Assembly: GCA_036392215.1 (NCBI GenBank) | Contig: DASVYJ010000027.1 | Span: 15,637 to 79,636, forward strand | Direction of reading: 5' to 3' | DNA length: 64,000 nucleotides | Source: Candidatus Limnocylindrales bacterium | GTDB taxonomy: Bacteria; Chloroflexota; Limnocylindria; Limnocylindrales; CSP1-4 | Part shown: piece by piece, positions 38,261-42,707 of the stretch | Position numbering within the stretch: the stretch's first letter is position 1 | How the letters are laid out: every line of letters begins with the position of its first letter | Notes under the pieces: model-generated | What the model saw: only the letters and a program-made list of their open reading frames with translations | What the model was told of the DNA's origin: nothing | The model's database searches: none | Program-made: the position numbers and the translations under genes

Positions 38261-39934
38261 TCAGCGGATGCCGGCCATCTCCTGGAGCAGCCGCCAGTTC
38301 TGCAGGCGGTCCTGCTGGCTGGCGGCGATCTCGACCGAGGGCTGGCCCTCCGCGTCGAAGTGCTGGGCGAACCGACCCTCGGTCCGGGCGAAGGCCAGGA
38401 AATCGAGCGGCGCGCCGTCGGGCTGCCTCGACCAGTCCTCCTTGGTGCTCGGGTTGCCCTGCAGCGAAAGGCGCTCGGCGAGCGTCTCGCCCCGCCGCGG
38501 GTCGTAGGTGAAGAGCGGGAAGGCGCGCGACTCGACGGCGAGCTTGGCCTGGCGGTTGGCCGCGTCGTCGGCGATGCCGTGCTCCGGCATGCAGGGCGTG
38601 TAGGCGATCACGACGGCCGGGCCCGGGTACGAGTTGGCGTCGAGGATGGCTCGATAGAAGTGGTTGATGTGGGCCGGCGTCGTCTGGGCCACGTAGACCT
38701 CGCCGTGCGAGACGAGGATCCGGCCGAGCTCCTTGCGCCGCTCCTGCTTGCCGTGCTCGGCCTTGCCGTACGCGGCGAGCTTGGCCACCTGGCCGCCGAA
38801 GGTCGAGGTCGAGGCCTGGCCGCCCGTGTTCGAATAGGCCCCGGTGTCGAGGACGAGGACCTTGATGTCGGCACCCGAGGCGACCATCCGCGAGAGCGAC
38901 TGGAAGCCGATGTCGTACATCGCCCCGTCACCCCCGAAGACCCACAGCCGCCGCTCTGGGTGGCCGGCCTGGTCCCAGCGGAGGCGGATCCCGAGCGCGT
39001 CGGCGGGGCCGTTCTCGAACAGGGAGTTCGTCCACGGGACGAGGTACGGGTTGAACGGGTAGGTCGAGCCGTAGACGGTGTTGCAGCCCGTCTCGGCGAC
39101 GATGCCCATGCTCTCCGGCCCGTACACCTGGCGGGTCGCGGCGACGAGCATCCGGACCGCGGTCGCCTCGCCGCAGCCGGAGCAGGAGCCGGCCCCGCCG
39201 ACGTACCCGAGGGCGTGCTCGCCGAGCATCAGGTCGGCCAGGGCCTTCTCGTTGCGGTACTCGACGGGGGTGGGCGGCAGCGACCGGAAGAAGCCGATGT
39301 CGCGCCGGTAGCGCTCCACGGTGCTCTCACCGCTCGGTTCGGCCGGCAGCTTGTCGATCATGATCAGGGCGTCGTGGCCCTGGTCGACGCAGACGTCGAC
39401 GCACTCGGCGCAGCCCTTGCAGTGGACTGGGTCCACGAAGATGCCGAACTGGGCCGGCTCGAGGCCGCGCTTGCGAGGGACCTCGGCGTACTTCTGGGTG
39501 GCCATGAAGTGCTCGCGGGCCGTCCGCTCCGCCAGGGCGGGGTCGGGCTGGCTCGCGGCGAAGGCCGCCAGCTCGGTCTCGAGAGCCGCCTCGGGCCGGG
39601 CGATGGCGAGGATCGCCGTGTCCGGGCAGGCGCTCACGCAGGCCATGCAGCCGACGCACTTCTCGGCGATGAGCTGGGGGATCTGCGGGGCGAGGCCGCT
39701 GAAGTCGCGGACCGCGGCCGTCCCCGGCGGGATGATGCTGCGCGCGACGCCCGCATCGGCAGGCAGCTCGAGCGAGGCGACGTTCCGCCGGTACGCCCCG
39801 ACGACGGAGCGGTTGAAGTCGTCGACGTAGGCCTCGACGTCGAAGACGGGCGTGCCGTCGCCGACGGCGGGTTCCTTGGCGACGAGGACGGGGTCCTGGT
39901 CGTCCTGGACGGGAAGGGAGATCGTGGTCATCAC
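38261..39934 (-). CDS. Pyruvate:ferredoxin oxidoreductase, C-terminal part (ferredoxin domain V plus TPP domain VI)
   Basis: CVGCMACVSACPD and CKGCAECVDVCV [4Fe-4S] motifs, then GGDGAMYDIGFQSL...NTGGQ TPP motifs. Confidence 0.9.
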   Translation of the reverse strand: MMTTISLPVQDDQDPVLVAKEPAVGDGTPVFDVEAYVDDFNRSVVGAYRRNVASLELPADAGVARSIIPPGTAAVRDFSGLAPQIPQLIAEKCVGCMACVSACPDTAILAIARPEAALETELAAFAASQPDPALAERTAREHFMATQKYAEVPRKRGLEPAQFGIFVDPVHCKGCAECVDVCVDQGHDALIMIDKLPAEPSGESTVERYRRDIGFFRSLPPTPVEYRNEKALADLMLGEHALGYVGGAGSCSGCGEATAVRMLVAATRQVYGPESMGIVAETGCNTVYGSTYPFNPYLVPWTNSLFENGPADALGIRLRWDQAGHPERRLWVFGGDGAMYDIGFQSLSRMVASGADIKVLVLDTGAYSNTGGQASTSTFGGQVAKLAAYGKAEHGKQERRKELGRILVSHGEVYVAQTTPAHINHFYRAILDANSYPGPAVVIAYTPCMPEHGIADDAANRQAKLAVESRAFPLFTYDPRRGETLAERLSLQGNPSTKEDWSRQPDGAPLDFLAFARTEGRFAQHFDAEGQPSVEIAASQQDRLQNWRLLQEMAGIR

Positions 39935-39942
39935 TCGCTCGG

Positions 39943-40359: not shown

Positions 40360-42707
40360 CGCACCGCCTCCACCGCCGCGGCCGCGGGCGAGGCGCCCGT
40401 GACCGCCGCCGTCACGTCGATGACGTTGTCGTAGGCCTCGGAGATGACCGCCAGGTTGGCGTCGACGACCGAACCGCCGCGCTTGCCGAAGAAGCGGTAG
40501 AGGGCCTTGCGGACCTCCTCGCGGAGCGTCTCACGGTCGAGACCGGCCCGCTCGGCGAAGGGCGAGACGCGCAGGAAGACCCCGACCAGGGCGACGCCCT
40601 GCATGCGCACGACCAGGTCCGCGCGGGGCGAGTGCTGGCGGGCAAGGGCTGCCGTATCGAGCGCCCAGAGCCGGATCCGGCGAGCGAGCATCTCGGCCCG
40701 GCTGGCGGCCGGCAGCGAGCCCCAGATCGCCTCCGCGTCGGTGAGCGGGCTCTGCAGGAAGACGGTCCCGCCGTCGGCCAGGCCGGCCAGCGGGTCGCCC
40801 TGGCGGAAGGCCGCCACGTCGTAGAGCGGCACGAACTCGACCTGCTCGAGCTCCGAGTGGATCCGGATCGGCTCGTCGGCGATCGTCAGGTAGTACGTCG
40901 TCGGGAGGCCCTTCTTCTCCGATCCGTAGAGCGGGTAGGCCTGGACGTGTTTCCCGAACAGCTCGCCGATGAGGGTGGCCAGGACCTTGTTCGTGGTGAC
41001 CGAGCCGAAGCCGCCGATCGAATGGCCGCGCAGGCTGTAGGCGCCGGCCGGCCGGAGGAGGACGGGCTTGCGCTCGAGCGCCAGCGGGTGGCGGATGCCG
41101 AGGACCGCGTGGCGCTGCTCGCGCAGCGCGTTCGGGTCGGCCAGCCAGTCGAAGACGGCCACCAGGTCGCCGACGGCGACGTCGCGGGAGCCGAGGCCGG
41201 CCGAGGCGGAGACGACCCGAGGCATCGGTGCGCCGTTCATCGCCGCGTCGGCGAGGGCGGCCTTGATCTCGCGGGTCAGCGGGTTGTCCGCCGCGGCGGG
41301 CTCGTCGGTCCGCTCGATGACGGCGATCGAGCGGGCGTTCCGCAGGGCCGCGGCGATCTGCGCCGCAGGGAACGGCCGGAAGCTCGTGACGGTCAGCGCG
41401 CCGACCTTGCGGCCGTCGTCGCGCAGGTGGTCCACGACGGGGGTCGCGGTGTCGGCCAGGGTGCCCATGGCCACGACGATCTCGTCGGCGTCCTCGCAGC
41501 GGTAGGCGTCGATAAGGCCGTAGGGCCGGCCGGTCAGCTCGGACCACTCGGCCATCGCCGTCCCGGCGGCCTCGGTCATCCGATCGTAGAAGGCTCGCTG
41601 GGCGACGCGACCCTTCATGTAGCTGTCCTGGTTCTGGACCACGCCCGTCATCAGGGCCTGGGCCGGATCGAACAGGTCGCGGATCCGCTCGCGCGGCTCG
41701 CCCACGAACGCCCGCAGCAGGTCGTCCTCGGGGAGCTGGACGTTCTCCATGGTGTGCGTCGTCAGGAAGCCGTCCTGGACGACGAAGACCGGCGTCTCCG
41801 TCTCCTCCGCGACCCGCCGGCAGATGGCGGTCAGGTCGGCCGCCTCCTGCGCGTTGCGGGCGAAGAAGATGCCCCAGCCCGTGTCGGCCACGCCCATCAC
41901 GTCGTCGTGGCCGGCGTGGATGTTCAGGGACTGGCTGGTGAGGGCCCGCGCCCCGACGTGGAAGACGGCCGGCAGGCGCTTGCCGCTGATGACGTACAGG
42001 ACCTCCTTCATGAGGATGAGGCCCTGGCCCGCCGTGAAGTTCGTCACCCGCCCGCCGGCCAGGGCGAAGCCCTCGGCGGCGGAGGCGGACGAGTGCTCGG
42101 ACTCGGGCTCGATGAACTTGAGGGTGGTGCCCCACAGGTTCGGGGTGCCGTTGGCCACCGCGACCTGGTAGATCGCCGCCATGTTCGTCGACGGCGTGAT
42201 CGGGTAGGCGCAGGCGCCTTCGCTGACGCGGGTCTCGACGTAGGCGATGGCCTCCGAGCCGTCGATGATGGCGGGGAGGCCCGGGTAGCGGGGGGCGGTG
42301 GGCAGGGTCGTTCTCGTCACGATGGTCGGTCCACTCAATTCGCGCAGCCGGCGGGCCAGCGCGCTTCCGTCAAGGTGCTTGAGCAGGGTGCCGCCGATCC
42401 CGCTGGCGACCGCCTCGCGCTGCTCGTCCGACCGCCAGTAGGAGGCGAGCACGGCGATCCGCCCCCGGTCGAGGAGACCGTCGAGGGCAGTGACCACCTG
42501 CTGCCAGCCGCCTGGCACGTCGCCGTCCACGAGGACCACATCGGGGCGCGTGGCGCGCACCTGGTGCGCGGCCGTCCCGCCGCACGTCGCGCGAGCGACG
42601 ACGACGAACCCGTGGCGCGAGAGGTGGTCGCTGAGGGCCTCCGCCGCCGCGCGGTGCTGGCTGACGATGAGCAGCCGGCGCGGGGGAAGCGGGTCGGTGG
42701 CGAGCAT
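40356..42707 (-). CDS. Pyruvate:ferredoxin oxidoreductase, N-terminal part (domains I-III) fused to an N-terminal receiver-like (CheY-like) domain
   Basis: Receiver-like segment: RRLLIVSQ...DVVLVDGDVPG...IAVLAS...LLKH. PFOR domain I: GSEAIAYVETRVSEGACAYPITPSTNMAA... Confidence 0.8.
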   Translation of the reverse strand: MLATDPLPPRRLLIVSQHRAAAEALSDHLSRHGFVVVARATCGGTAAHQVRATRPDVVLVDGDVPGGWQQVVTALDGLLDRGRIAVLASYWRSDEQREAVASGIGGTLLKHLDGSALARRLRELSGPTIVTRTTLPTAPRYPGLPAIIDGSEAIAYVETRVSEGACAYPITPSTNMAAIYQVAVANGTPNLWGTTLKFIEPESEHSSASAAEGFALAGGRVTNFTAGQGLILMKEVLYVISGKRLPAVFHVGARALTSQSLNIHAGHDDVMGVADTGWGIFFARNAQEAADLTAICRRVAEETETPVFVVQDGFLTTHTMENVQLPEDDLLRAFVGEPRERIRDLFDPAQALMTGVVQNQDSYMKGRVAQRAFYDRMTEAAGTAMAEWSELTGRPYGLIDAYRCEDADEIVVAMGTLADTATPVVDHLRDDGRKVGALTVTSFRPFPAAQIAAALRNARSIAVIERTDEPAAADNPLTREIKAALADAAMNGAPMPRVVSASAGLGSRDVAVGDLVAVFDWLADPNALREQRHAVLGIRHPLALERKPVLLRPAGAYSLRGHSIGGFGSVTTNKVLATLIGELFGKHVQAYPLYGSEKKGLPTTYYLTIADEPIRIHSELEQVEFVPLYDVAAFRQGDPLAGLADGGTVFLQSPLTDAEAIWGSLPAASRAEMLARRIRLWALDTAALARQHSPRADLVVRMQGVALVGVFLRVSPFAERAGLDRETLREEVRKALYRFFGKRGGSVVDANLAVISEAYDNVIDVTAAVTGASPAAAAVEAVR

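Follow-up and report, generated by a model that had tools for sequence, protein, structure and literature searches.

The window considered here is a 64,000-nucleotide stretch of DNA from a metagenome-assembled genome (MAG) of Candidatus Limnocylindrales (Chloroflexota), with a G+C content of 72-78 %. Its largest product has 100 % identity to a protein from such a MAG. The system of interest within it is a minus-strand gene set that is best explained, from its sequence, as a pyruvate:ferredoxin oxidoreductase (PFOR) made in two polypeptides as a two-subunit, (αβ)2-type enzyme. The α-subunit comprises domains I-III and the β-subunit domains IV-VI with three [4Fe-4S] clusters; a gene for a small protein of two CBS domains lies between the two subunit genes, and a receiver-like domain is fused to the front of α.

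Layout of the locus

The open reading frame (ORF) map shows three co-directional ORFs in series, here termed ORF1, the CBS ORF and ORF3 (Table 1), with the Pfam domains expected of the tripartite arrangement that had been proposed in a preliminary description of this DNA. An 868-residue, mechanically called version of ORF1 (start 42962) is an over-extension, as protein conservation starts at ATG 42707. For ORF3, the GTG start gives 557 residues and the ATG start 556; gene callers on independent assemblies choose the ATG, 11 nucleotides past the CBS stop. The preliminary description had both junctions as ATGA-type overlaps. This holds for the first, where ATGA at 40356-40359 contains both the ORF1 stop and the CBS start, but not for the second, where the CBS stop TGA (39945-39943) is followed by a spacer of 8 nucleotides to the GTG or 11 to the ATG (39945..39931).

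Table 1. Coordinates, strand and basis of the features assigned at and around the split PFOR locus (window numbering)
Feature	Coordinates	Strand	Basis or remark
ORF1	42707..40356	minus	783 aa from conserved ATG
Receiver-like (pseudo-receiver) domain of ORF1, ~aa 1-126, NarL/DosR type	42330..42707	minus	Pfam, hhalign
PFOR α part of ORF1: linker and domains I, II, III	40356..42329	minus	Pfam, TIGR02176, alignment to Desulfovibrio africanus PFOR
Stand-alone CBS pair (Bateman module), 138 aa	39943..40359	minus	Pfam, AlphaFold2, Foldseek
ORF3, PFOR β, domains IV-VI	38261..39934	minus	Start GTG 39934 or ATG 39931
Candidate promoter/operator region, conserved, directly upstream of ORF1 ATG	42708..42790	minus	Near-invariant blocks
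Upstream context, apparently one operon	43087..47074	minus	Pfam
GAF-HisKA_3-HATPase sensor kinase	45077..~46672	minus	Pfam
DosR/NarL-type regulator	44397..45068	minus	Pfam
Acetyl-CoA hydrolase/transferase	43087..44358	minus	Pfam
GC-rich palindrome between convergent ends of β gene and K+ channel gene	38220..38233		Pattern match

The two PFOR subunits and the break between them

ORF1 matches the Pfam families POR_N (E 6.5e-56), PFOR_II (6.4e-21) and POR (1.4e-28), and ORF3 matches TPP_enzyme_C and Fer4 families. The three domains of ORF1 are, in order, the domain that binds the pyrimidine of thiamine pyrophosphate (TPP), a transketolase-C-like domain and a gamma-like domain that binds coenzyme A (CoA). 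The NCBIfam model of single-chain PFOR, TIGR02176, is covered from position 3 to 614 by ORF1 and up to 1114 by ORF3; the scores of 363 and 221 bits are to be read against an equivalog cut-off of 911, which is out of reach for half-length pieces. The best Protein Data Bank (PDB) matches of both proteins are single-chain PFORs (E 3.5e-79 for α and 1.7e-49 for β). Aligned to PFOR of D. africanus (DaPFOR), ORF1 spans residues 7-611 and ORF3 residues 634-1128. These limits fit those of the published domains, which we take to be ~627 for the end of domain III and 628-668 for domain IV, so that the break falls at the III/IV boundary, where the preliminary description had placed it. That description gave ORF3 domains V and VI, both of which are present; the domain-IV stretch is in ORF3 as well.

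The catalytic elements of the enzyme are distributed over the two chains. In the residue-level alignment to DaPFOR, ORF1 keeps the YPITPS, E64 and R114 regions, and its AlphaFold2 (AF2) model has a predicted local distance difference test score (pLDDT) mostly above 80 across domains II-III. All 12 cysteines of the three [4Fe-4S] clusters are in ORF3; by Pfam and alignment, α has no cluster motif and β has all three. Domain V contains two 4Fe-4S motifs, CVGCMACVSACP and CKGCAECVDVC, and domain VI contains GGDGAMYDIG and YSNTGGQAS (the GDG...N that binds the TPP diphosphate), CSGCGE, TGCNT and TPCMPEHG, with the cysteines of the proximal cluster. With the cluster cysteines, the TPP motif and the YPITPS, E64 and R114 regions intact, ORF1 and ORF3 together look like a catalytically complete PFOR. 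Pyruvate is the presumed substrate, the best matches being PFORs. The β-subunit has no domain-VII-like extension, and its alignment ends at about DaPFOR 1128.

In comparison with single-chain PFOR of the NifJ type (D. africanus 1B0P, Moorella thermoacetica 6CIN), the window pair has the same order of domains I-VI and the same cofactor motifs, but the chain is broken at III/IV, with a CBS gene at the break, domain VII is absent, and domain I has a receiver-like domain in front of it. The split in itself is a known kind of PFOR, as a two-polypeptide, three-cluster enzyme from Magnetococcus marinus (Mmc1_1741/Mmc1_1742) has been expressed, purified and electrochemically characterised (PMC12337175). 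By its published description, that enzyme resembles the window pair in carrying three clusters jointly on two polypeptides, and it differs in being reported without a CBS protein or receiver (PMC12337175). The view, taken in the preliminary description, that the arrangement is unlike any characterised system thus has to be narrowed: two-polypeptide PFOR is characterised and α-β pairs without CBS are common, and it is the CBS and receiver additions that are uncharacterised.

A search with ORF3 of 1.84 billion cluster representatives returned three classes of relative. Stand-alone β proteins of 480-580 residues are 40-60 % identical to ORF3, and single-chain PFORs are 41-47 % identical (P0251, P0257; a further fragment, P0264, has domain III running straight into IV-VI). 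In the third class β is fused to a GltD-like NAD(P)H-oxidoreductase module. The example, P0241, has 962 residues, is 65 % identical to ORF3 and ends in Fer4_20 and Pyr_redox_2 domains of the GltD/NfnB-like kind; its sequence suggests a bacterial pyruvate:NAD(P)+ oxidoreductase that is built otherwise than the eukaryotic enzyme (PNO). Two other relatives, P0258 and P0262 (~495 residues, 40-42 % identical to ORF3, from low-GC organisms), appear to have GGDGAM.DIGF replaced, for example by SRNSGFSEKGF, and may, on that evidence, be catalytically dead paralogues.

A CBS pair between the subunits

The preliminary description of a 138-residue tandem-CBS ORF in the split is borne out by Pfam, which finds CBS in two stretches (E 2.4e-35). 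The AF2 model of the protein has a pLDDT of 90.6, and Foldseek matches it with a probability of 1.00 to many CBS pairs. Best among these are Arabidopsis CBSX2 with AMP, TTHA0829, AcuB with AMP, ADP, ATP or diadenosine tetraphosphate (Ap4A), and MJ0100 with S-adenosylmethionine (SAM) or methylthioadenosine (MTA); CBSX2, TTHA0829 and AcuB superpose with template-modelling (TM) scores of 0.78-0.83 at 30-37 % identity. Both clefts have the ribose motif G-h-h-S/T-x-S/T-D (GVLSQTD and GIISTTD), which is kept across 120 orthologue clusters and a distant clade, and the linker RAR..LW..WPGL.VRHLM is likewise conserved in the 120 clusters. The translated protein has no cysteine, so that a thiol switch is unlikely.

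By analogy with these structures, the most likely ligand of the CBS pair is one that contains adenosine, and its binding would alter the activity or assembly of the α2β2 core. AMP, ADP and ATP are the default candidates by the same analogy, and CoA and acetyl-CoA are possibly ligands too, attractive ones because the adjoining domain III binds CoA. Gating of PFOR by adenosyl ligands or energy charge, as the preliminary description proposed, is plausible on the modelled fold. Ligand identity and the direction of regulation are inferred.

The fold is shared with plant CBSX1 and CBSX2 (which bind AMP and act on thioredoxins), AcuB, the CBS pairs of IMP dehydrogenase and CBS-pyrophosphatase, and AMPK gamma, and the size and stand-alone format are like those of CBSX and AcuB. 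What sets the window protein apart from other Bateman modules is the linker W-x-G-[LM]-x-x-x-H-L-M, peculiar to the PFOR-associated group. To our knowledge, no Bateman-module regulator of these families partners a 2-oxoacid:ferredoxin oxidoreductase (OFOR). Five recent multi-chain PDB entries (9zni, 9znf, 9zng, 9sr9 and 9e6q) contain CBS-domain proteins that score well against the window protein; they are not OFOR complexes, since none is among the PDB matches of α or β. HRP1 (Rv2626c) of the Mycobacterium tuberculosis DosR regulon is likewise a small CBS-pair protein, and the window gene adjoins a DosS/DosR-type system; the window protein differs in being cysteine-free, and we know of no link between HRP1 and a PFOR. 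Orthology with HRP1 was rejected, as the similarity is generic (1xkf, E 1.3e-6, at about rank 53 among the PDB matches, of which the best reach E 4e-23).

Conservation of the layout in Limnocylindria

The exact CBS protein, with identical neighbours, is found on contigs from six independently assembled sequencing runs (Logan), and many full-length homologues are on record. A one-genome-per-species scan gave 551 loci with an ORF1 relative; the counts that follow are from the best 80, all of them from Limnocylindria-type MAGs. The order α-CBS-β is found in 70 of the 80 and α-CBS followed by the contig end in 5; two loci are cut before the junction and three have α and β without CBS. The CBS gene thus lies between the subunits in 75 of 78 informative loci, its absence from orthologous loci having been named beforehand as what would speak against the arrangement. 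In 70 of 74 loci, α and CBS overlap by 4 nucleotides, which read ATGA or GTGA. At the CBS/β junction, 40 of 44 receiver-less loci have an overlap of 4-14 nucleotides, and most receiver-bearing loci have a spacer of +3 to +32.

The CBS gene is strongly, not absolutely, retained in Limnocylindria. In L026 (7030-7090) the ATGA and a CBS stump of 17 codons are left, and L023 likewise has only a stump of 17 codons. In L061 (3650-3660) the CBS gene is gone and α is joined to β directly through ATGA. In L067 (7674-7922) an internal part of the gene has been deleted, and what is left encodes one hybrid CBS domain of 82 residues.

Recurrence of the CBS pair and its fusion to α

A metagenome scan seeded with distant β proteins gave 80 further loci of 36-72 % G+C, in most of which α (domains I-III) is followed directly by β. 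In 12 of them (L096, L112, L116, L117, L119, L121, L123, L124, L128, L129, L143 and L163) a CBS pair that is 35-43 % identical to the window protein lies between the two. The window protein and this second clade have in common GV[IL]S.TDLV.AR, the W-x-G-[LM]-x-x-x-H-L-M linker, IHRLVVV and P[IV]GI[IL]S.TDL. In L143, α and CBS form one ORF with a natural-looking linker between them, and a search with that ORF found at least 70 protein clusters of 780-830 residues, 60-91 % identical, with the Pfam order POR_N, PFOR_II, POR and CBS. NCBI names the sources as Caldilineaceae, Caldilineales or Caldilineae MAGs, some with megabase-sized contigs. In one Caldilineae genome a 791-residue α-CBS gene is followed by a gene whose product is 55 % identical to the window β, and the C-terminal 130 residues of the fusion align end to end with the window CBS protein (34 %, E 8e-19).

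That the CBS pair has its own gene in Limnocylindria and is a covalent domain in the corresponding place in Caldilineae argues, by the Rosetta-stone principle, for physical association, and the CBS protein probably binds PFOR. Together with the conserved translational coupling, the fusion supports a functional tie, the CBS pair being by this evidence an accessory module of the PFORs in this clade. When β is placed on a neighbour-joining tree, lineages without CBS come between the groups that have it (Limnocylindria, the L117-L129 group and Caldilineae). The tree therefore does not uphold a single origin of the association; its deep nodes, on which the order of gains and losses depends, are unreliable. 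An apparent CBS-ferredoxin fusion, P0351 (among 50 % representatives), proved to be an out-of-frame, Arg/Ala-rich read-through, a frameshift artefact, as did P0261.

The receiver-like domain of ORF1

At the N-terminus of ORF1, Pfam gives Response_reg with E 8.4e-7 and 29.6 bits, just below the gathering cut-off of 30.2. The AF2 model shows β-α-β-α-β-α in the first half of the domain (pLDDT 54-71) and falls below 50 in the second (residues 81-135); given this low confidence, hhalign was used for receiver homology in place of a fold search. A profile of the N-terminal 130 residues matched the receiver of the DosR-type regulator in the window with a probability of 96.9 % (E 2e-10, 28 % identity), and the PDB sequence matches of the domain are the NarL-family receivers EvgA, DesR and DevR.

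Key residues were counted in 78 relatives carrying the domain, aligned to the same regulator. The phospho-acceptor Asp after β-3 and the Lys after β-5 are present in all 78. The acidic pair is replaced, its first position by S in 77 of 78 and its second by Q, T or H in all 78 (the window reads SQ), and the Thr switch position at the end of β-4 is Ala in all 78, the next residue being Ser in 76. The preliminary description was right about the Asp, the Lys and the SQ; it also had the Ser/Thr position kept, where the Thr is in fact Ala and only the following Ser is conserved. With the acidic pair and the Thr lost throughout the relatives, the domain is, by its sequence, a pseudo-receiver. In CheY-like receivers the second acidic residue is required for Mg2+-dependent phosphotransfer, and with the Mg2+-binding acids lost, phosphorylation by the usual chemistry is improbable. 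A phosphorylation-independent interaction with the neighbouring two-component system is possible.

The domain is found in 30 of the 80 Limnocylindria-type loci, which form one clade on the β tree, plus L031 and L035. In these two (L031 1899-2255, L035 1701-2057) the receiver is a separate putative ORF, unfused, about 230 nucleotides upstream of α. It reads S-D...D...S...K, with one Mg-binding Asp and the Ser kept, and so is nearer to a functional pocket. The separate receiver is by its sequence probably the pre-fusion state, and a likely history is that a small receiver gene beside the PFOR genes was later fused and then degenerated. A degenerate pocket with receiver homology is known from the N-terminal domain of KaiA, the CikA pseudo-receiver and atypical NarL-family regulators. 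The window domain differs in being fused to a metabolic oxidoreductase and not to a clock protein or a DNA-binding domain, and in keeping Asp and Lys with the loss of both acidic residues and Thr.

Upstream region and candidate operators

Between the transferase gene and ORF1 lie 380 nucleotides, and the ORF1-proximal block is near-invariant across the receiver clade, as seen in 13-28 orthologous upstream regions (L007-L055) in which the flanks are variable. The block contains a palindrome, GGGCC-N4-GGCCC, at 42780..42767, followed by a second, imperfect box CGGGCAGCCTGTCGCTA (also given as GGGAGCCCTGTCGC) and then a variable spacer. In the form GGGAGCCCTGTCGC the box agrees at 8 of 10 half-site positions with the consensus of the mycobacterial DosR box. 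A CAC-N-CT hexamer ends 6 nucleotides before the ORF1 ATG; as a Shine-Dalgarno sequence is lacking, the ORF1 transcript is probably leaderless. From the sequence we infer that the block comprises tandem NarL-family operators and the -10 element of a leaderless transcript, and the PFOR operon is presumably under the control of DosR. The canonical mycobacterial box GGGACNNNNGTCCC, allowing at most one mismatch, was rejected as the operator, with 6 matches in the window against 10.8 expected and none upstream of ORF1.

In the window as a whole, 6-7 matches to the palindrome pattern compare with 1.9-2.75 expected, and most are intergenic; for the variant GGGMC-N4-GKCCC there are 6 against 2.75, with 5 of the 6 in non-coding positions. 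Tandem palindrome boxes lie at 18577-18613, upstream of an ArsR-family gene (18141-18536, minus) that is beside HypE-like maturation genes; another palindrome, at 28409-28422, is upstream of the gene for the small subunit of a NiFe hydrogenase (27087-28424, minus), and a third, at 46828-46841, precedes the likely start of the GAF sensor kinase by about 155 nucleotides. These shared palindromes suggest a common regulon with the PFOR operon. The palindrome between the convergent β and K+ channel genes is possibly a bidirectional terminator hairpin. A hairpin GGCC-GAAT-GGCC followed by TGTTTTG, at 42956-42969 and about 130 nucleotides past the stop of the transferase gene, may be a terminator that parts the transferase operon from the PFOR operon. 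An Rfam scan of 36-48 kb at E <= 1 matched no family, and the conserved upstream element is therefore not a known riboswitch or leader. A scan of 37.9-45.3 kb for sigma-70 promoters and intrinsic terminators gave no promoter and one weak terminator-like site, and is uninformative for this phylum.

Genomic neighbourhood

The sensor kinase, the DosR-type regulator and the transferase are found upstream of all 30 receiver-bearing loci whose contig extends so far. On the other side lies a second, conventional OFOR (~34270-36959, plus), convergent with the PFOR operon and composed of α (POR_N and PFOR_II), β (TPP_enzyme_C) and a gamma subunit of 184 residues. The pairing of both OFORs is kept in many related loci and in the related MAG L087, which adds a small gene for a ferredoxin-type delta subunit. 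A K+ channel gene and a universal stress protein gene are also near the locus. A NiFe hydrogenase cluster (small subunit, a HypE-like AIR-synthase-related protein, an ArsR regulator) occupies ~18000-29000 of the same window, and L087 has the gene for the NiFe hydrogenase large subunit right beside its tripartite PFOR. This setting is circumstantial evidence for a low-oxygen fermentative module in which pyruvate is converted to acetyl-CoA and on to acetate, with electrons leaving via ferredoxin.

Alternative explanations

That the three genes are a single-chain PFOR broken by indels, through assembly error or frameshifts, might be suspected in DNA of 73 % GC, for which MAG assemblies are error-prone, as the garbled P0351 and P0261 illustrate, and close single-chain relatives do exist (P0251, 47 % to β; P0448, 1141 residues). 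Yet the gene structure is identical in the six independent assemblies and in 75 other species, the start/stop geometry is conserved, and between the halves stands a complete, well-folding 138-residue CBS pair that no indel makes out of PFOR sequence. The comparative data have thus already refuted an artefact, the chance of which is vanishingly small, and the preliminary description was justified in considering frameshifts unlikely. A second alternative is that the CBS protein is an independent hypoxia or stress protein like HRP1, co-expressed in the PFOR operon without touching the enzyme. The locus has a DosS/DosR-type system and the gene for a universal stress protein as neighbours, HRP1 is among the PDB sequence matches of the CBS protein, and CBS is dispensable in L023, L026 and L061 and absent from most α-β loci. 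Against this, the gene sits exactly between the subunit genes with its conserved 4-nucleotide overlap, it is also present in 41 receiver-less loci without DosR nearby, it is covalently fused to α in Caldilineae, and HRP1 is no closer to it than are generic CBS pairs, with many far better matches in the PDB. An HRP1-like role without enzyme contact therefore seems unlikely.

Another possibility is that the CBS protein is not a sensor but an element for structure, assembly or protection from oxygen, stabilising the α-β interface to which the split gives rise. It would be comparable in spirit to the C-terminal domain VII of D. africanus PFOR, which is protective, and the window β lacks any such extension. 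The location of CBS at the break point, and of its fused form at the III/IV junction, would suit such a role, as would hosts that come mostly from oxic soils and peat. Many α-β enzymes nevertheless do without CBS, the protein has no cysteine, its nearest structures are nucleotide-bound, and both nucleotide-ribose motifs are kept over a range of 35-100 % identity, which a purely structural role would not need; we consider this alternative rather improbable. Much the same low standing is given to the proposal, made in the preliminary description, that the fused receiver accepts phosphate from the DosS-like kinase and gates PFOR through a phosphorelay. The invariant Asp and Lys and the kinase/regulator operon upstream of the receiver-bearing loci speak for it, and the pocket of L031 and L035 indicates that phospho-control may be ancestral. 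The replacement of both acidic Mg2+-binding residues, the second of which is generally needed for phosphotransfer, the Ala at the Thr switch in every relative and a Pfam score under the gathering cut-off count against it, and phosphorelay gating by the fused domain is not sustained by the comparison.

A proposed model for regulation of the PFOR

The explanation that we favour, with moderate confidence in it as a whole, is a two-subunit PFOR with a CBS regulatory subunit and a pseudo-receiver, encoded in a redox-switched operon. The CBS protein would be an accessory regulatory subunit of the α-β enzyme. It would be made in fixed proportion with the subunits, its gene being between α and β and translationally coupled to α, and would be seated where domain III meets domain IV, since in Caldilineae the C-terminus of domain III carries the module as a covalent extension. 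By binding AMP, ADP or ATP, or possibly CoA or acetyl-CoA, it would shift activity or assembly. The pseudo-receiver would descend from a small receiver gene just upstream of α and have lost Mg2+ chelation; because it cannot chelate Mg2+, its action is probably independent of phosphorylation and consists in dimerisation or the binding of a partner. The operon would have its own promoter with the conserved palindromic boxes, and would be switched on under oxygen or redox limitation, when pyruvate would pass through acetyl-CoA to acetate with reduced ferredoxin as the electron outlet. Low-oxygen induction is probable because the DosS/DosR-type system, the acetyl-CoA transferase, the second OFOR and the NiFe hydrogenase adjoin the locus.

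Several observations weigh against this model. CBS is lost in L023/L026 and L061 and halved in L067, the majority of metagenomic α-β PFOR loci have no CBS, and its presence on the neighbour-joining β tree is patchy; the losses and the many CBS-less loci show that it is dispensable for catalysis. Confidence in the model of the receiver domain is low for its second half, and the preference for pyruvate over another 2-oxoacid as substrate depends on the best matches. With regard to regulation, the mycobacterial box GGGACNNNNGTCCC is not enriched in the window, the enrichment of the variant palindrome is modest, and GC-rich palindromes can also be terminators.

Significance

PFOR ties glycolysis to ferredoxin-dependent hydrogen, acetate and CO2-fixation pathways and is usually viewed as an unregulated workhorse enzyme; we know of no allosteric regulator described for any OFOR. 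Split PFOR and CBS modules as regulators of many enzymes are already known, and the proteins themselves are in databases under generic names. What is new here, and as far as found uncharacterised, is the association with CBS, whether by a gene of its own or by fusion, together with the capture of a pseudo-receiver. In full-text literature searches no paper described a CBS protein partnering PFOR and none mentioned PFOR in Limnocylindria, and the literature on Caldilinea and PFOR gave no account of such a layout.

A conserved CBS module, separate or fused according to class, offers a testable handle on post-translational control of PFOR, and the α-CBS fusion proteins of Caldilineae, as ready material for structural work, are the best entry point. 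The series from receiver gene to fused pseudo-receiver illustrates how a metabolic enzyme can capture a signalling domain. Both Limnocylindria and Caldilineae abound in soils, peat and wastewater, and little is known of how they survive oxygen limitation. In its boldest form, which we put forward only tentatively, the proposal is that an allosteric Bateman subunit on PFOR in a Chloroflexota-centred clade reads the adenylate or the CoA/acetyl-CoA pool, together with a pseudo-receiver that, in one Limnocylindrales subclade, was welded on from what had been a single-domain response regulator of the DosS/DosR-type hypoxia system. If true, aerobic soil bacteria would gain post-translational control of ferredoxin-dependent pyruvate oxidation in oxygen limitation.

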